DNA of 64,000 nucleotides from Escherichia phage T5_ev219. A program made the position numbers and the translations under genes. The notes beneath the pieces are model-generated. The model did no database searches, was not told where the DNA came from, and saw only the letters and a list, made by a program, of their open reading frames with translations. Position 1 is the first letter of the stretch. Each line of letters begins with the position of its first letter. Positions 16,904 to 55,884 of this stretch are shown in pieces. The stretch lies in sequence record NC_134263.1. One strand, written 5' to 3'.

Positions 16904-17608
16904 ATGGCTGGTTCTCGCAGAAAGAAACATATCCATGAAATCCCTGATGAAGTCTTTAAAAAAGTTATAGAGCATCTGGAGAACGGTGGTACTAAGAAAG
17001 CAGCATGTGAGATGCTCGGCGTATCATCCAATCCGACTATGGAAAGGATGATAGAAGAGTGGCAAGATCGCCAAATTCAGGTTGCCGAGATGAAGAAAAA
17101 GAAACGTGGTACACTCATTGAAGGTATTGAGTTGGCCAACGTTATTGAACAGTATCTATCTGGTGATTCTTTTGAAGAGATTGCCGATCGTAACTACCGC
17201 TCTGTAGCAATGGTTAAATCTGTTCTAGAACGATATGGTGCTCTACTTCGTTTGAACGATATTGTAGACCCCTTGAATCCTCCAATTATTCCTGACGATG
17301 CTGTAGCAGAAGAATTTGAGGTTGGAGAACTTGTTTGGGTTCCTGGATACCAGTGTATCGGTGAAATCAAAAAAGCAATGGATAACCCTGTTGGTTGTTA
17401 TCGAGTCTGGTTACTATCGGAAGGCAAACAACAGAACGTTCATTATATGAATTACGAGCTGGCTTCTGTTAAACATCTGGAAAAGTTAGGGGTTGACGTA
17501 AAATCTCTGGGGTACAAGTGGACTCGTGAAGAAGTTATTACGTTGATTAACGAAGCTGTTAAGGCTGCCTTGAAACTTGATAAAGAAAAAGGAAAACGCC
17601 GTGAGTAG
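16904..17608 (+). CDS. putative DNA-binding protein with two HTH motifs
   Basis: N-terminal HTH (GGTKKAACEMLGVSSNPTMERMI) and second HTH-like segment; GAGGAG RBS. Confidence 0.55.
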   Translation: MAGSRRKKHIHEIPDEVFKKVIEHLENGGTKKAACEMLGVSSNPTMERMIEEWQDRQIQVAEMKKKKRGTLIEGIELANVIEQYLSGDSFEEIADRNYRSVAMVKSVLERYGALLRLNDIVDPLNPPIIPDDAVAEEFEVGELVWVPGYQCIGEIKKAMDNPVGCYRVWLLSEGKQQNVHYMNYELASVKHLEKLGVDVKSLGYKWTREEVITLINEAVKAALKLDKEKGKRRE

Positions 17609-17955: not shown

Positions 17956-18366
17956 ATGACTACTCCAACTCAGTGGACTGATGAACTGTTCGAAAAAATG
18001 TCTTCCGAATACGTTGCTCGTATGGAGCAATTCCCAGAGGATGAACGTCCGGGTGTTAGCATGGAAATTGTTAGCGAAATTGCCCAGGAAAATGGTGTAA
18101 CTCCGAACGGTTTTCGTATGAAGCTGACTAAAGCAGGTGTGTATATCAAGAAAGCTGCTGGCTCTGCTTCTAAATCTAGCGCATCTACTGGAGAAAAAGC
18201 TTCCGGTGGTTCTCGTACCTCCAAAGCCCAGGCTCATGCTGACCTTCGTTCAGCGTTCTCTGATGCTGGCTTAGCACCAGATTTTCTGGATGATGCAATT
18301 ATCGACAAACTGACCGGTAAAGCGGCTGCTCATCTGGCAGAAGCAATCCGAGCTATCACTAAGTAA
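17956..18366 (+). CDS. hypothetical early protein with host-optimised codon usage and Ser/Ala-rich linker
   Basis: ORF track; strong RBS; GC-richer codon choice than neighbours. Confidence 0.6.
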   Translation: MTTPTQWTDELFEKMSSEYVARMEQFPEDERPGVSMEIVSEIAQENGVTPNGFRMKLTKAGVYIKKAAGSASKSSASTGEKASGGSRTSKAQAHADLRSAFSDAGLAPDFLDDAIIDKLTGKAAAHLAEAIRAITK

Positions 18367-19145: not shown

Positions 19146-20117
19146 ATGACTAATGTAAAAGAATTTATTAAACGCTGTCAAGAAGCATATTATCAGGGTA
19201 TGTCTTTAATCTCTGATGAGGAGTATGATTGCCTGGTAAAACGCTTCCCGTTAGAAGAAGAGATCGGGCCTAGGGGTGATATTCCACATCTGTATCGTAT
19301 GTATTCTTTACAGAAAGTTTACTATAACCGTGGAGATAAATCACCATTCAATCCTTTAGGTCAGGTGGAAACCGATAAGTTAGATGGTTGTGCAATTTCT
19401 CTGCTATATATTAATGGCGAATTTGTTCAAGCATTAACCCGTGGTAATGGTATTCTGGGGAATGATGTCACAAGCAACGTAAGATTGCTGAACATTCCTA
19501 AAAAGATTTCCCAAAAAGTACCTACTCAAATCACTGGTGAAGTTCTAATTACAAAAGAAGTAGAAAATAAACGTAACTTTGCCTCTGGTGCTATTAACCT
19601 CAAAGATAGTGATGCTTTCGTACAACGTATTGGAGAAGGTGGTTTAATCTTCGTTGCATACGGTATCCAGTGTTCTGCTGAATCTGTAGGTATTACAGAA
19701 GCATATTTAAAAGATATGCTTTGGCTGGAGAATGAGAACTTCTTAACAGTTGTTAATGTGCGTTCCTTCTTTAAATGGATTCCGACGGACGGTAAAGTTG
19801 TTCGTATTAATGACAACAACAAATTCTTCCGTGAAGGCTGGACTAATAAATTCCCTCGTGGAGCATTCGCCATTAAAGAGGATGAAGAAGGCGAGATTAC
19901 AACTCTTACTAAAGTTGAATGGCAGGTAGGGGCTTCTGGTAAAGTAACTCCAGTCGGTTATTTTGAACCAGTAATTATTGATGATGCTACAATTGTTAAA
20001 GCGACTCTTAATAACGTTGATTATATTAACTCTCTTGATCTAGAGATCGGTTGCCAGATTCGAGTGATTCGTGCTGGTGGTGTAATCCCGTGCATAGTAG
20101 AGCGAGTATACGATTAA
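19146..20117 (+). CDS. ligA: NAD-dependent DNA ligase, N-terminal subunit (adenylation + OB domains)
   Basis: KxDG adenylation motif (ETDKLDGCAIS); 323 aa. Confidence 0.8.
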   Translation: MTNVKEFIKRCQEAYYQGMSLISDEEYDCLVKRFPLEEEIGPRGDIPHLYRMYSLQKVYYNRGDKSPFNPLGQVETDKLDGCAISLLYINGEFVQALTRGNGILGNDVTSNVRLLNIPKKISQKVPTQITGEVLITKEVENKRNFASGAINLKDSDAFVQRIGEGGLIFVAYGIQCSAESVGITEAYLKDMLWLENENFLTVVNVRSFFKWIPTDGKVVRINDNNKFFREGWTNKFPRGAFAIKEDEEGEITTLTKVEWQVGASGKVTPVGYFEPVIIDDATIVKATLNNVDYINSLDLEIGCQIRVIRAGGVIPCIVERVYD

Positions 20118-20167: not shown

Positions 20168-20196
20168 TTGACATTTTCGCCGCTTAGGTATATACT
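20168..20196 (+). promoter_or_regulatory. sigma70-type promoter (TTGACA-17-TATACT) inside the ligase inter-ORF spacer
   Basis: Hexamers at 20168-20173 and 20191-20196. Confidence 0.5.
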
Positions 20197-20260: not shown

Positions 20261-20289
20261 TTGCTAAATGCTTAAATACTTGCTATAAT
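20261..20289 (+). promoter_or_regulatory. sigma70-type promoter (TTGCTA-17-TATAAT) preceding the second ligase ORF
   Basis: Hexamers at 20261-20266 and 20284-20289. Confidence 0.6.
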
Positions 20290-20319
20290 ATTTATATAAA
20301 TTGATAAGGAAGAAATTTG

Positions 20320-21099
20320 ATGAAAATCGAAATTCCAACACAATGTCCCTCTTGTGGTTCTAAGCTAGATCTTGTCAACGGACAATTATTCTGTCGTAAT
20401 AAGTCCAACTGTCCAGCGCAATCAAGTAAGTTAATTGAGAACTTCTGTTCAAAAATGAAGTTAAAGGGTTTTGGCCCAAAAACTATTGAGAAGCTGGAGC
20501 TGACGAAGATTTCAGAACTATTTTACCTAACCGAAGAAGATTTGGTTAGAGCCGTGGGTAGCAAGGTTGCCGCTAAGTTAATTAGCGAATTAAATACTAA
20601 AGTTCGCGGAGACATTGACTTTGGTTCAGTTCTCGGTTCTTTAGGAATCCCTCTAATCGGAGAGGTTGCAGCAAAGAAATTATCCCAAAATTGCACTAGC
20701 TTCCACGATGTGAAGGCTGACGGCAAGGCTGGAGAAAACTATAAAGCCTGGCTAAATTCCCCACAGGGCAAGGATGTTATCGAATTACCGTGGAAATTCA
20801 CAACTGGTATTAAAGGTGCTAAAGCTGAGGTCATCATCACTGATGGTCTAGTAGCCCAACCAAACGGAATAACGGTATGTATTACCGGATCTTTGCAAGA
20901 TTTTGCAAATAGAACGGATGCAACAAACTATTTAGAAGGTCTAGGATATACGGTTAAGAAATCCGTTACCAAAGACGTCAAATACCTAATCTGTGAGGAT
21001 GAATCTAAGCGTTCTTCCTCATCTTATAAGAAAGCCGAAACGAATGGGATAGAAATCCTGTCGATTAAAGAACTATTGGAGAAAAATAATAATGTCTAA
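20320..21099 (+). CDS. ligB: NAD-dependent DNA ligase, C-terminal subunit (Zn-finger, HhH, BRCT-like)
   Basis: Four-Cys zinc finger CPSCG...CRNKSNC; ORF track TTG 20317 adjusted to ATG 20320 with AAGGAAG RBS. Confidence 0.8.
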   Translation: MKIEIPTQCPSCGSKLDLVNGQLFCRNKSNCPAQSSKLIENFCSKMKLKGFGPKTIEKLELTKISELFYLTEEDLVRAVGSKVAAKLISELNTKVRGDIDFGSVLGSLGIPLIGEVAAKKLSQNCTSFHDVKADGKAGENYKAWLNSPQGKDVIELPWKFTTGIKGAKAEVIITDGLVAQPNGITVCITGSLQDFANRTDATNYLEGLGYTVKKSVTKDVKYLICEDESKRSSSSYKKAETNGIEILSIKELLEKNNNV

Positions 21100-21859
21100 A
21101 CTGAACTGGAACGTAGAAGGTGTAACCGAGTCTCTGAAAGCAAAAGCCACTGCTCTGGGTGTTGCTGTAATCTCTCAAGAACAAGTAGCGGCTATCGCTG
21201 CTGAACTGGCTGCTGAAACTGGCAAAGACGTTACCGCTCGCTCTGTTGGCTCTAAGCTGCGCAAAGAAGGTTTCGAAGTACAGAAAGCTAACGAAGTACA
21301 GAAATCCCCGTGGACTCCTGAGCAGGAAGCTGAACTGGTTGATTTCCTGAACGCTCATGCTGGTCAGTATACTTATGCTGAAATCGCTGCTGCTGTAGCT
21401 GGTGGTCAGTTTGGTGCTAAGCAGGTACAGGGTAAGATCCTGAGTCTGGAAATGACAGCATCTGTTAAGCCGACCGAAAAAGCTGCTGCTGTTCGTTCCT
21501 TCACTCCTGATGAAGAAACTGATTTTGTTAATCAGGTTGTTGCTGGTGCTACTATTGAAGCTATCGCTGCTCACTTCGGTCGTAATATCAAGCAGATCCG
21601 TGGTAAAGCTCTGAGTCTGCTTCGCGAAGGTCGTATCGCTGCTATGCCGGTACAGGAAACTTCAAGTGCTAAAACTCGTGAAGATCTGTTAGAAGGTCTG
21701 GATCTGGCTAACATGACTGTTGCTGAGATCGCTGAGAAAACTGGTAAGTCTGAGCGCGGTGTTAAATCTATGCTGTCTCGTCGTGGTCTGGTTGCTAAGG
21801 ACTATGATGGTGCCGCTAAGCGTGCTAAATTGGATGCAAAAGCTGCGGCTGCTGAATAA
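21092..21859 (+). CDS. DNA-binding protein built of four HTH repeats (sigma70 region-4-like); position suggests a D5-type early DNA-binding protein
   Basis: Four approx 40-aa repeats with T.EEIA..G.....IRGKAL.LLR pattern; strongly host-optimised codon usage. Confidence 0.55.
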   Translation: MSKLNWNVEGVTESLKAKATALGVAVISQEQVAAIAAELAAETGKDVTARSVGSKLRKEGFEVQKANEVQKSPWTPEQEAELVDFLNAHAGQYTYAEIAAAVAGGQFGAKQVQGKILSLEMTASVKPTEKAAAVRSFTPDEETDFVNQVVAGATIEAIAAHFGRNIKQIRGKALSLLREGRIAAMPVQETSSAKTREDLLEGLDLANMTVAEIAEKTGKSERGVKSMLSRRGLVAKDYDGAAKRAKLDAKAAAAE

Positions 21860-21876: not shown

Positions 21877-21909
21877 AAGGGGAGGGGGCTATGCTCCTTC
21901 CCCTTTTTG
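21877..21909 (+). terminator. rho-independent terminator
   Basis: ggggagg...ccttcccc hairpin followed by TTTTT. Confidence 0.6.
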
Positions 21910-21941
21910 CATTTAGAAGGCACGAAAGCGTGCAAAGGAGA

Positions 21942-23414
21942 ATGACCTTGTTTAACGTGCAAGCTGTAGTGTTGAAGATGCTTCTAGCTTCAGAACAGAA
22001 GCAAATAGCATTGGAAACATTCTCAAAACTGCATAAAGATCATTTTAATGACGCTTTCTCCTCAATTTACCAAGCCGTCCAGAATTATTATAAAAAATAT
22101 AACACAATGCCGTCCATTGACGCACTGATGCTTGAGGCTAATAGGAACGCCCGCCTTTCTCAAGCTCTAGTCGTTTTAGCTAACACTCAAATTCCAGAAG
22201 TTAGCATGGAACAGGCACTTGAAGTCCTAGAGGCCGAGTATACACAGGATTTATTCCTGAAGCTTCTAGAAACAGACGTGCTTCAAGATTTAACAATGCT
22301 GGATCAGGGAGAAATTCTTAACCGAGTTGCCTCCCTTCACTTAAAATTAGAAGAGAAAGTAACGAATACTGGAAAAGTATTCAACGCAGATAACATGCGT
22401 ATTTTCCAGAGAGAAGAAGATACCAAACTGAACTTAATCGCTCTTGGTATTTGTAATGAGTTCGACGCTCAAATTGGTTTAGCTCGCACAGAAACGTTAC
22501 TGCTTGGTGGTTGGCGTGGTACTGGTAAATCCATTATCTGTTCAAACATACAGGTTCAGCAATATTTGAATGGAGATATTGCTCCATACTTCTCAATTGA
22601 GATGAAAGAACATGAAGTATTTAGACGTAATCTAGCCATGTTAGCTGGTGTATCAGCACTAGCAATGCGTAATAATACTCTAGAAGGTGCAGCTCTGTTG
22701 AGATTAGCCAGAACTAGAGCTAGGATGTTTAACGGTGGTGAAGAGCTTTTCGATAACTTCGTTAAACAGTACACAATGGCTAAGATGAGTGATTTCTACG
22801 ATATGGAAAGTAAGCTAATAGAAGGGTATGAACTACATACTCCTATGATTATTGTTTATGATCCTGAGCTGTCTATTACAACAGTTGACGTAGAATTAAA
22901 TAAATTAGTTGCTAGATATGGTGATAAAGTTACAGTAGCTTTACTTGACTATATTAACCAAACCCGACTTCCAGATTCTAAAACCATTGATATGTATGAC
23001 TGGAAAGAACAGATGGTTGTTAGCTCGTCTTTCAAATCTATCTGCCAGAAACATAACGTGGCTGGTGTAGCTCCTTACCAGATTGATCAAGATGGTAGAA
23101 CACGTATGTCAAAGGGGATTCTTGATTCCGCAGACATGGCTGCTAATCTTAATGCTGCAAAAGCTGATAATGGTCAAGGTGCTATTATGTTTGACTTCGT
23201 TAAGACTCGTTCTTCTGATAGTGTGAAGTTTATGCCTAAAATGAACTGGGAAACCCTACGGATGGATAACACTACCAACCTAGCAATGGAAGATATATCT
23301 CAAATGGAAGCTGAGTTCGTTATCCCTATTGAGAAGGATAAGCCGGCTCAATCTAAACGTGCTAAGAAAGACAAAGCTGAAAATTCAACAGGTGAACAGG
23401 CCAGCGATATATGA
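21942..23414 (+). CDS. DnaB-like replicative helicase
   Basis: Walker A GGWRGTGKS, RecA-like core; ORF track start 21891 lies inside the terminator hairpin, so ATG 21942 with AAGGAG RBS preferred. Confidence 0.7.
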   Translation: MTLFNVQAVVLKMLLASEQKQIALETFSKLHKDHFNDAFSSIYQAVQNYYKKYNTMPSIDALMLEANRNARLSQALVVLANTQIPEVSMEQALEVLEAEYTQDLFLKLLETDVLQDLTMLDQGEILNRVASLHLKLEEKVTNTGKVFNADNMRIFQREEDTKLNLIALGICNEFDAQIGLARTETLLLGGWRGTGKSIICSNIQVQQYLNGDIAPYFSIEMKEHEVFRRNLAMLAGVSALAMRNNTLEGAALLRLARTRARMFNGGEELFDNFVKQYTMAKMSDFYDMESKLIEGYELHTPMIIVYDPELSITTVDVELNKLVARYGDKVTVALLDYINQTRLPDSKTIDMYDWKEQMVVSSSFKSICQKHNVAGVAPYQIDQDGRTRMSKGILDSADMAANLNAAKADNGQGAIMFDFVKTRSSDSVKFMPKMNWETLRMDNTTNLAMEDISQMEAEFVIPIEKDKPAQSKRAKKDKAENSTGEQASDI

Positions 23415-29517: not shown

Positions 29518-29802
29518 ATGCTTACAGAGCCTGATGCTCACCAATTATTGGTCGGTTCCTCATTCATTTTGAATGAATCAACAATAGTTGATAATCCAAA
29601 TAAATTGTCTAATAGACAACTGGCAGAATATCTAGGAATTTTAAGTCTACGAAATTATGCCGAATACAAGTTTACAAACGATCCTAGTTTGGACATACAA
29701 TATGTTCCAGTATGGATACCACGTTTAGTAATCGACACTAACCCACTAATCGCAATTAACAAATCGAAATTAATCTTTAAAGAGGAAATAAAATATGGCT
29801 AA
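29518..29802 (+). CDS. hypothetical protein
   Basis: ORF track. Confidence 0.5.
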   Translation: MLTEPDAHQLLVGSSFILNESTIVDNPNKLSNRQLAEYLGILSLRNYAEYKFTNDPSLDIQYVPVWIPRLVIDTNPLIAINKSKLIFKEEIKYG

Positions 29803-30568
29803 GTCTTGGGGCGAAACTACTGGCGGTTCTAACGATAAAATCGAATTCCTGAAGTTCAACAACGGTATCACTCGTGTTCGTATCGTTTCTGGTGTTCTTC
29901 CACGTTATGTCTATTGGCTGACTAATAAAGAGGGTAGCGTAGCTCCTTTCGAATGTCTCCGTTTTAACCGCGACAAAGAGAGCTTTGTTCGTGGTAAAGC
30001 TGACCCGGTTCATGAGATGGGCTTCTTTGAGAAAGAGCTGGATAAAGATGGCAATCGTGTTCCGCTGAAACCGAAGAAAAACTATATCGCTTTTGTTATC
30101 GACCGTTCTGATAACAAACTGAAAGTAATGGAAGTCAAAGCTACTATTCTGAAAGGCATCCAGTCTATCATGAAGCAGTTGAATCTGGCAACTCCGTTTG
30201 ATATTGATATTTCTATCGAGAAAAAAGGCAAAGGTTTCGATACTGAGTATGATGTACAGCAGATTGCTGCTATGCAGTTCCAGATTAAGCTGCAAGATCC
30301 TAACAGTGCGGAATCTAAGCAATATGCTGCGGATGTAGATCTGATTGGTGAAGCTATGTGTGACGAAGATGGCGACATCATTAAGTTCGAGAAAGTTCCT
30401 TCTCTGGAACAAACCTATCCAGTTCCTACCTATGAAGAGCAGAAAGAAGCAATTCAAGCCTTCATGGAAGGTCGTGAGAATAAAGATGATGATGCCAAAT
30501 CTGGTAACAGCAATGCTGGTTCCCAGAAAGGTATTGACTCAGAAGCTGCAAGCGATCTGGACGACTAA
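29795..30568 (+). CDS. abundant early protein with acidic C-terminal tail (possible SSB-like)
   Basis: Host-optimised codon usage; C-terminus EAASDLDD; AAGAGGAAA RBS. Confidence 0.5.
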   Translation: MAKSWGETTGGSNDKIEFLKFNNGITRVRIVSGVLPRYVYWLTNKEGSVAPFECLRFNRDKESFVRGKADPVHEMGFFEKELDKDGNRVPLKPKKNYIAFVIDRSDNKLKVMEVKATILKGIQSIMKQLNLATPFDIDISIEKKGKGFDTEYDVQQIAAMQFQIKLQDPNSAESKQYAADVDLIGEAMCDEDGDIIKFEKVPSLEQTYPVPTYEEQKEAIQAFMEGRENKDDDAKSGNSNAGSQKGIDSEAASDLDD

Positions 30569-54507: not shown

Positions 54508-55884
54508 TTAAGATGCAGCGTAAGCACCAGATACAACGCCATTTGCAAAGTAACGTTGCAGGTTAACACGCTGAGTAACGTAGTATGCGTCACGCTGTTT
54601 ACCAGCTTGGCGCTCACGTTCAACAGTAACAGCACGCTGGCGTGGCATTACGAAGTTATCTTTATAAACAATAACTGCGAACTCTGCGGAAGTAGCTTTA
54701 GCTGGGAAGTACTCAGAAACTACAACCGGCAGACCATAAATACGACCAACCTGACCCTGCAGTTTAACAGCATCATTACCAACTTGGGCAACATCCTGCC
54801 ATTCTTCATCTTCCAGCAGATCATAGTAAGCATCCATAGATACAATCAGTACCAGTTTGCTCAGTTTCAGACCATGACGGCCCAGTTTACGACGCAATTT
54901 AGAGATAGTTTTAGCAGTTACCAGTACGGAACCATCAGCTTTAGCTTCAGTAATAACTTTAGCACTATCTTCACTAGCAAGAGTCAGCAGACCTTTCGGT
55001 TTACCGGAACCATCACCAGTCATGAAGGCTTCTTCAATAGAAACAGCGTGTGCTTCGATCAGACGCTTACGAAGCAGTGGCAGCAGGGAGAAGATTGCAT
55101 CTTCTTCAGTTTCATCAGTAATGAAGGACTTAGCAGCCAGTTTGTAAGTACTGAAGTGGATTTCTTTAAGAGCACCTTTAACTTCATCACCAGTAGTTGC
55201 ATCAGTACCATAAGTAGAAGCAGCAACCCAAGTAGCTTTACCAGCATCCGGTTCAACCAGCATAGTAAGAATCTTACTGGACATCGGCAGTTCTTCGAAC
55301 AGTGCGCCAACTACAAGCTCTTTCTGCAGGTCACGGATAATACGCTGAGAGAAAATAGTTTCATAGCTTTCACTAGAAACTTCTACAGAAGAAGACTGAT
55401 TCACTGCTTTCAGGTGTTTTTGACCGTGTTCGGTCTCGAATACGCCCTTTTCCATTACATAAGATAACAGAACCAGTTTTTCAACTTCATCTTCAAAGTT
55501 TTCCTGAGTACCGTACAGTGCTTTAGCAACACTATCACCAACGAAGGAACGACCTTCACGAGCTGTCAGCAGAGATTTAATTTCATCCTGAAGACCAACA
55601 ATAGTTTCCTGTTGTTTTTCTACAGTTTGTGCAAACAGTTCTGCGCTCTTCTTAGATTTCTCATCCAGAGACTTAACCAGATCCAGAGCCTCTTCCAGAC
55701 GCTTACGATCTTCGCCAACTGCTTTAGAAACCAGGTCATTCATACGAGCCAGTTCTTTTTCTTCCTGCTCTTTACGCATACGTTCAGCTTCCTGAGCTTT
55801 CTGAGCAGCGGTCAGACCTTCCAGAGATTTAGCCAGATCACCCAGACCAAGTTCTTCTTTCAGCTTATTAATATCAATAGTCAT
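54508..55884 (-). CDS. major capsid protein precursor (HK97-fold with N-terminal scaffolding delta domain)
   Basis: 458 aa; N-terminal coiled-coil scaffold-like region then capsid core; follows protease gene. Confidence 0.85.
   Translation of the reverse strand: MTIDINKLKEELGLGDLAKSLEGLTAAQKAQEAERMRKEQEEKELARMNDLVSKAVGEDRKRLEEALDLVKSLDEKSKKSAELFAQTVEKQQETIVGLQDEIKSLLTAREGRSFVGDSVAKALYGTQENFEDEVEKLVLLSYVMEKGVFETEHGQKHLKAVNQSSSVEVSSESYETIFSQRIIRDLQKELVVGALFEELPMSSKILTMLVEPDAGKATWVAASTYGTDATTGDEVKGALKEIHFSTYKLAAKSFITDETEEDAIFSLLPLLRKRLIEAHAVSIEEAFMTGDGSGKPKGLLTLASEDSAKVITEAKADGSVLVTAKTISKLRRKLGRHGLKLSKLVLIVSMDAYYDLLEDEEWQDVAQVGNDAVKLQGQVGRIYGLPVVVSEYFPAKATSAEFAVIVYKDNFVMPRQRAVTVERERQAGKQRDAYYVTQRVNLQRYFANGVVSGAYAAS

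Follow-up and report, generated by a model that had tools for sequence, protein, structure and literature searches.

Between the genes for an NAD-dependent DNA ligase subunit (ligB) and a DnaB-like helicase, Escherichia phage T5_ev219 carries an open reading frame (ORF) that raises two questions: which protein does it encode, and what would a phage do with an array of helix-turn-helix (HTH) modules written in the codons of a very strongly expressed gene? The window analyzed here is a stretch of 64,000 nucleotides of this phage (sequence record NC_134263.1), and all nucleotide positions refer to it. As set out below, sequence comparison assigns the ORF to gene D5 of T5-like phages. The gene, the DNA binding of its product and its HTH nature are already known and on record, and the discovery value of the present analysis is therefore small. 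What is added is incremental, namely an explicit map of four GcrA-type modules and the finding that D5 tops the codon-adaptation rank beside the capsid protein and other DNA-coating proteins. D5 is central to two unsolved problems of T5 biology, i.e., the switching between gene classes on the host sigma-70 polymerase and the escape from host methylation, and it also acts as a natural trigger for retron defence. A domain map that names its modules, recognition helices, linkers and tail gives handles for mutagenesis and structural work. Identity, architecture, conservation and expression signals are drawn from this analysis, and DNA binding and phenotype from the literature.

Identity, genomic context and distribution of D5

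The 255-aa ORF is a real ATG-initiated reading frame, and the suggestion of an earlier note, made from the DNA letters alone, that it might be the classical T5 protein D5 has turned out to be correct. The window ORF and the T5 D5 gene share 97.9% nucleotide identity, equal length and the same neighbours (megablast, AY543070), the feature at the syntenic place of AY543070 is annotated as 'D5 protein' (T5.118, AAS77164.1), and PHROG 323, 'transcriptional regulator, D5-like', matches aa 1-253 with an E-value of 1.9e-71; NCBIfam has no model for the D5 protein. On the basis of synteny, the T5 annotation and the PHROG 323 match, we therefore identify the ORF as the D5 gene (T5.118) and the phage as T5-like. 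The record note of T5.118 describes a DNA-binding protein that is needed for DNA replication and late transcription and is involved in expression shutoff. The protein has a net charge of 0, contains no Cys and 18% Ala, and possesses two Trp residues, W6 and W74.

In both the window and the T5 annotation, D5 is located between ligB and the DnaB-like helicase gene (Table 1), and the order ligA-ligB-D5-DnaB-primase-PolA is still seen where the homologues are approximately 50% identical (loci L002, L003 and L004). Among phage genomes, megablast matched the D5 ORF in 510 records, 425 of which at 95-99% identity, and tblastn found the family in 901 phage records. The records listed among these 901 are all T5-like and approximately 100-130 kb long, except for one Klebsiella phage record of 289 kb, and the T5-like phages carrying D5 infect enterobacteria, Vibrio, Proteus, Aeromonas and Pectobacterium among the matches listed. 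The family is narrow, as a search of 1.84 billion representatives gave 168 clusters at E<=0.001. Among T5-like phages, D5 is a hallmark gene.

Table 1. Positions of D5, its predicted modules and neighbouring features in the window
Feature	Position	Strand	Description
ligA half of NAD-dependent DNA ligase	19146-20117		
Sigma-70-type promoter	20168..20196	+	TTGACA-17-TATACT; 11/12 consensus positions; within mapped P-K 28b (P-K28b) of AY543070
Second promoter	20261..20289	+	TTGCTA-17-TATAAT, extended TG; equivalent to T5 P-K28a
ligB, NAD-dependent DNA ligase subunit B	20317..21099	+	stop codon overlaps D5 start
Shine-Dalgarno sequence GGAG	21078..21081	+	10 nt upstream of D5 ATG, followed by A-rich spacer
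D5 CDS	21092..21859	+	ATG ORF, 255 aa, 27.0 kDa, pI 6.8
Predicted HTH module R1, aa 6-60	21107..21271	+	helices 11-22, 29-43, 49-58 (AlphaFold2); recognition-helix motif RSVGSKLRK
Predicted HTH module R2, aa 72-122	21305..21457	+	W74; helices 76-88, 95-101, 109-118 (AlphaFold2); motif KQVQGKILSL
Predicted HTH module R3, aa 135-182	21494..21637	+	F137; helices 139-150, 155-162, 166-178 (AlphaFold2); motif KQIRGKALSLLREG
Predicted HTH module R4, aa 198-235	21683..21796	+	helices 210-217, 221-231 (AlphaFold2); motif TVAEIAEKTGKSERGVKSMLSRRG, ECF-type sigma region 4-like
Conserved C-terminal tail, aa 236-255	21797..21856	+	helix 240-254; KDYDGAAKRAKLDAK...
Intrinsic terminator	21877..21905	+	18 nt past D5 stop; 13-bp stem, 8 G-C pairs, followed by T run
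DnaB-like helicase gene	start near 21891		downstream of D5
Separate single-strand DNA-binding protein gene	29795-30568		matches PHROG 1607 'single strand DNA binding protein', E 4.5e-106

Four-module architecture

The architecture of D5 was modelled by AlphaFold2 from an alignment of 56 homologues that are 48-81% identical to the query. The model has a mean pLDDT of 94.6, but its pTM is low (0.56), which leaves the placement of the modules relative to one another uncertain. According to this model, D5 is composed of four helical HTH modules and a C-terminal helix (Table 1). The structure prediction thus agrees with the earlier note in the number of modules, which had been described as four consecutive repeats, whereas in the single sequence only R2 and R3 are significantly alike, and the helices give a period of approximately 57-68 aa (about 60), marked by W6, W74, F137 and about L199, instead of the 40 aa that had been proposed. 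R2 and R3 are 40% identical over 48 aa (BLASTP, E 3e-6), and their Smith-Waterman alignment has a z-score of 7.3, with none of 2000 shuffles as good; for the remaining module pairs, single-sequence alignments gave z-scores of at most 2.1, none above chance. Family profiles related further pairs, with E-values of 1.5e-9 for R2-R3, 4.5e-5 for R3-R4, 1.7e-4 for R1-R4 and 8.7e-4 for R1-R3, and the profile-aligned pairs are in register on helix 2-turn-helix 3. A recurring family pattern could be recognized in the 56-homologue alignment, consisting of an aromatic residue, an acidic helix, a T/S-x-x-E-I-A helix and a basic helix K-Q-V-x-G-K-x-L-S-L. Since one homologue carries five modules, the module number has changed by duplication. 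R4 and the C-terminal tail were also found alone in unrelated membrane proteins.

Compared to the PDB by Foldseek, the whole D5 model had no match below E 0.1 (best E 0.12), and single modules alone found matches, while the global matches among predicted viral structures were other D5 proteins only. To date, the D5 literature mentions 'an HTH motif' (bioRxiv 10.64898/2026.07.11.737809), and an explicit four-module description with a GcrA-type assignment does not appear to be spelled out there.

Kinship and conservation of the modules

Several HTH families were seen in profile searches with D5. Pfam Sigma70_r4_2 (PF08281) reaches 29.1 bits against a gathering score of 25.7, on R4 only (aa 204-230), and the match covers 27 of the 54 profile positions, i.e., the generic HTH core. 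Below their thresholds are Sigma70_r4 (PF04545, 18.3 vs. 24.1), Myb (PF00249, 17.6 vs. 24.4 bits) and HTH_23, and neither the Pfam GcrA model (PF07750) nor, at E<=10, Sigma70_r2 matches the D5 protein of the window. Among the 56 homologues, Sigma70_r4_2 was matched by 50 (taken at E<=0.01), HTH_23 by 31, Myb by 13 and GcrA by four.

Profile-profile comparison by hhalign, with reference sequences for the DNA-binding domain of GcrA (GcrA-DBD) and E. coli sigma70 region 4.2 that were verified against the PDB, gives a more specific answer. The R2/R3 profile aligns with GcrA-DBD at 92.7% probability (E 4.3e-7) over 47 columns, which is the whole domain, and with sigma70 region 4.2 at merely 10%; for R3, the corresponding probabilities are 84% and 51% (E 1.5e-4 for sigma70 region 4.2). 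Hence, the resemblance to sigma70 region 4.2 that was first noticed is real, as seen from the PF08281 match of R4 and the value for R3, but it is generic, and GcrA is closer. A search of PDB sequences with the D5 family profile gave weak matches only, including a designed engrailed homeodomain (0.0022) and Timeless (0.069). The neighbouring D3 DNA-binding protein is not a paralogue of the D5 modules (hhalign probability 0.2%). D2 contains weak HTH-like stretches only.

GcrA-DBD binds as a monomer in the DNA major groove via helices 2 and 3, with G38 lining the methyl pocket and K39 contacting the backbone (PMC5887438). In the hhalign alignment, the equivalents of G38-K39 are the invariant pairs G114-K115 and G171-K172 of D5, whereas the base and methyl readers R33, N34 and I37 of GcrA are not kept. 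In each D5 module, conservation is highest in helix 3, with mean column identities of 0.87, 0.86, 0.72 and 0.82 for R1-R4, compared with 0.42-0.57 for helix 1. Its invariant residues are R50, K55, L56 and R57 in R1, Q113, G114, K115 and L117 in R2, G171 and K172 in R3, and G223, L228 and R231 in R4. The conservation of helix 3 and the alignment of G114-K115 with G38-K39 of GcrA suggest that each of the four modules is functional in binding nucleic acid. Outside the modules, the linker residues V125, K126, P186 and Q188 are conserved in the family, and in the C-terminal tail G240 is invariant, and conservation reaches 90% or more at D237 and K246.

Codon adaptation and expression signals

The frequency of optimal codons (Fop) was calculated with a set of codons that are optimal in highly expressed E. 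coli genes. D5 has a Fop of 0.819, ranking first among the 65 ORFs of the window that start with ATG and encode at least 100 aa (mean 0.47, sd 0.09), and the lowest Nc (31.4) among the 55 ORFs of at least 120 aa (median 44.6). In the window, D5 (0.82) is followed by the major head protein (0.78), the D3 DNA-binding protein (0.72) and the single-strand DNA-binding protein (SSB, 0.65), all of which are proteins that the phage needs in bulk. The bias is visible in individual codons, such as CTG for Leu (84% in D5 vs. 18% in the other long ORFs), ATC for Ile (90% vs. 23%), GCT for Ala (85% vs. 49%) and GGT for Gly (89% vs. 54%), and D5 contains no AGA, AGG, ATA, CTA or GGA codons. The gene had been described as using GC-rich codons, which needs correction: its GC3 of 0.337 is similar to that of the neighbouring genes, and the host-preferred codons that it uses are mostly T-ending. 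The raised GC content (0.479) is located in codon positions 1 and 2 (0.553) because 18% of the residues are Ala. In addition, the window contains no tRNA genes, so the codon bias of D5 is not attributable to a local phage tRNA. The orthologue of Vibrio phage D259 also has the lowest Nc in its locus; in the metagenomic locus L002/L003 the Nc of D5 is not the lowest, and the codon-bias signal is thus not universal.

The expression signals around the gene point in the same direction. Two strong early-type promoters lie in tandem upstream of ligB, the ligB stop codon overlaps the start of D5, which places both genes in one transcription unit, and the terminator past D5 folds with -25.6 kcal/mol (z -2.75). 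With tandem promoters upstream and a terminator behind it, D5 is thus the last gene of a transcription unit under strong promoters, and the following helicase gene probably relies on read-through of the terminator. The selection for high expression that the codons had suggested at first sight is supported by the first ranks in Fop and Nc together with these promoters and the terminator.

Proposed function of D5

D5 has been on record as a DNA-binding protein since 1979, as far as the title of a paper of that year tells, and the title of the paper of McCorquodale et al. supports its identity and phenotype. For phiR2-01, a T5-like phage, D5 was one of the proteins with the highest abundance in a preparation of virions (PMC8624392). 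Recently, the type IX retron Kva2 was reported to be triggered by D5 of T5; according to the same study, AlphaFold3 predicts the HTH protein D5 on the stem-loop of the retron msDNA, purified D5 is a 26 kDa monomer which remodels the retron complex, and a retron escaper phage carries W74* in D5 (bioRxiv 10.64898/2026.07.11.737809). Two other papers on defence systems deal with T5 ORF55 and T4 Dda rather than with D5. DNA from T5-like phages evades Dam and Dcm methylation by a mechanism that is non-specific and unidentified. From the work of Rice et al. in 1979 and related papers, D5 is said to be abundant and to bind DNA cooperatively with a preference for double strands, and cooperative coating of DNA agrees with this classical description.

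We consider it probable, at approximately 0.6, that D5 of T5-like phages is an abundant, early protein with multiple HTH modules that coats double-stranded DNA in bulk. In such a protein, four small modules of the GcrA-DBD/Myb/sigma-4 type would sit on one chain, connected through conserved linkers, with a conserved helix at the C-terminus, and each module would place its conserved basic helix 3 into the major groove of DNA. A single monomer could then hold several successive grooves at high avidity but with little dependence on sequence, and the phage DNA may be coated by many copies. This coat would limit sigma-70 RNA polymerase at early promoters, leading to early shut-off by promoter occlusion, and may ready the template both for late transcription and for the replisome of the phage. 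The gene appears to be built for bulk production: it has promoters in tandem, a ribosome-binding site of good quality, a codon adaptation that is the best of the region, and a strong terminator, the last of which would also hold the downstream helicase at a lower level.

Some features are less easily accommodated by a coat. A net charge of 0 and a pI of 6.8 are unusual for a non-specific DNA coat, the W74* escaper is hard to square with an indispensable one, and strongly conserved recognition helices would equally suit a sequence-specific protein. D5 might then be a late-gene factor with one or more modules that, as in GcrA, recognize a motif in or close to T5 promoters, while a different part, e.g., the conserved C-terminal tail that is without an assigned role, contacts sigma-70 RNA polymerase and moves it from early to late promoters. 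Such a factor would be in line with the late-transcription and early-shut-off phenotype in the T5 annotation, with the fact that GcrA, the closest structural relative, is a monomeric activator of the sigma-70 holoenzyme, and with the report that all T5 gene classes use sigma-70 RNA polymerase, the mechanism of the switch being stated there as unknown (PMC7472727). However, GcrA binds sigma-70 region 2 through a C-terminal CCCH zinc-finger domain (PMC5887438), which D5 cannot carry since it has no Cys, and the specific base and methyl readers of GcrA are absent from D5. The phage proteins that co-purified with RNA polymerase from T5-infected cells were gpT5.026 and proteins of 60, 11, 90 and 15 kDa, and a protein of the size of D5 (approximately 27 kDa) is absent from that list (PMC7472727). 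A codon adaptation that exceeds the value for the capsid protein also points to stoichiometric rather than regulatory amounts. On balance, we regard a sequence-specific role as doubtful, though more probable than the other alternatives to a coat.

The bulk DNA coat may also be extended: D5 could be more than a passive coat, its occupancy protecting phage DNA from methylation and timing the early-to-late switch, with the conserved C-terminal tail as a tether to either the replisome or RNA polymerase, which we view as a speculative and rather improbable addition.

Much less probable is the idea put forward in the earlier note that D5 mimics sigma region 4 and redirects the host RNA polymerase. 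Its modules would then bind the beta-flap or compete with sigma-4 for -35 elements and thereby reprogramme the enzyme. The Sigma70_r4_2 match of R4, its recurrence among the homologues and the hhalign value of R3 would fit such mimicry, but these matches are confined to the HTH core, PF04545 stays below its cut-off, and the R2/R3 profile hardly recognizes sigma70 region 4.2. Moreover, D5 has no sigma region 2, the RNA polymerase co-purification list leaves out a protein of its size, and a 1:1 ligand of RNA polymerase needs neither four copies of a module nor bulk expression, so this part of the note is unsupported. The 'single stranded DNA-binding protein' annotation that MZ079855 gives to the matched region can be dismissed, since the AlphaFold2 fold of D5 is an all-helical HTH fold and not an OB fold, the window has a separate gene for that protein (Table 1), and D5 reportedly prefers double-stranded DNA.

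Comparison with known systems

D5 of bacteriophage T5 and D5 of the window are the same gene; the window comes from a close relative of T5, and nothing of substance differs between them. Sigma-70 and ECF sigma region 4 (PF04545, PF08281) belong to the same HTH superfamily as the D5 modules, whereas D5 has neither sigma region 2 or 3 nor a sigma architecture, and four HTH modules fill the whole protein. D5 possesses three-helix DNA-binding domains of the type found at the N-terminus of GcrA, but GcrA combines one such domain with a zinc finger, while in D5 there are four modules and a zinc finger is lacking.

With regard to function, the p6 protein of phage phi29 offers a parallel. It is an abundant early histone-like protein that coats the phage double-stranded DNA cooperatively and is needed for replication and for the early-to-late transcription switch. 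The analogy is functional only: p6 is a small, dimer-forming protein of unrelated fold and size rather than an HTH array, and no homology is implied.

With regard to architecture, tandem Myb/SANT arrays, such as c-Myb R1-R3, SNAPc4 and Timeless, resemble D5 in carrying consecutive three-helix HTH modules on a single chain, and they match D5 by sequence profile and structure. Myb repeats contain three regularly spaced Trp residues and the D5 modules one aromatic residue in helix 1, and the Myb proteins are eukaryotic and sequence-specific. GcrA and the Myb-type domains are closer to D5 than sigma region 4 is; each module of a Myb/SANT array, like each module of D5, would be able to place helix 3 in the major groove, and the DNA-binding domain of Timeless works within a replisome.

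Possible mobility and number of modules in the D5 family

Module 4 of D5 together with its conserved C-terminal tail (pattern MTVAEIAExTGKSERGVKxxLxRxGxxxKDYDGAxKK) is found alone, at one protein end, in six otherwise unrelated proteins (P0235, P0236, P0239, P0245, P0253, and P0262). These proteins are approximately 235-260 aa long and contain long hydrophobic, apparently membrane-spanning stretches, and two of them also have a C-terminal CxxC...CxxC motif. This distribution suggests that module 4 plus the tail is a self-contained, mobile module. In addition, one D5 homologue (P0123, 309 aa) consists of five modules and possesses an additional copy of module 2; therefore, module number in the family alters through internal duplication.

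The D5 orthologue of Klebsiella phage vB_Kpn_3 (GenBank MZ079855) is labelled 'single stranded DNA-binding protein', which is very probably a mis-annotation.

Codon adaptation and expression of other genes in the window

When the open reading frames of the window are ranked by Fop (the share of host-preferred E. coli codons), D5 and the other highly adapted genes (those with Fop values in the table) encode proteins required in bulk by the phage.

Features in the window considered here
Feature	Position	Strand	Remark
D2, PHROG 3611	16904-17608	+	named 'helicase'
D3 'DNA binding protein'	17956-18366	+	Fop 0.72
Alternative D6 start	21942		in-frame ATG, AAGGAG just upstream
Single-strand-binding protein	29795-30568	+	Fop 0.65
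Major head protein	54508-55884	-	Fop 0.78, next best after D5

No promoter-like sites were detected from the D5 terminator to the gene of the DnaB-like helicase D6, and hence D6 is probably expressed via read-through of this terminator. Within the region 21877-21944, the D6 start codon used in the T5 record (ATG at 21891) is located inside the loop of the terminator hairpin, and the product initiated from the alternative ATG would comprise approximately 490 aa, which is nearer to the lengths of its homologues (470-485 aa).

Retron escape

The D5 gene was classically defined through conditional-lethal mutants. In view of those mutants, it is odd that in a T5 escaper of retron Kva2, a type IX retron triggered by T5 D5, the D5 reading frame is reportedly cut short by a stop codon, W74* (bioRxiv 10.64898/2026.07.11.737809). 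The W74* product would stop short of module 2.

Possible reuse of the HTH module in T5-like phages

Two weak HTH_23/HTH_28-like stretches were observed in D2 (aa 21-42 and 79-113), and comparison of D2 with the D5 module revealed no clear kinship (hhalign 7.5%). Weak matches to Pfam 'Phage_T5_A2' are present in several D5 homologues, as well as in a Vibrio phage ORF at the D3 position (2599-3003 of L004, a locus whose D5 relative is ~50% identical). Considering these matches and that the N-terminal domain of T5 A1 was reported to resemble GcrA-DBD (bioRxiv 10.1101/2022.08.27.505566), a three-helix DNA-binding domain akin to the D5 modules, this small HTH module may be used repeatedly across several DNA-handling proteins of T5-like phages.
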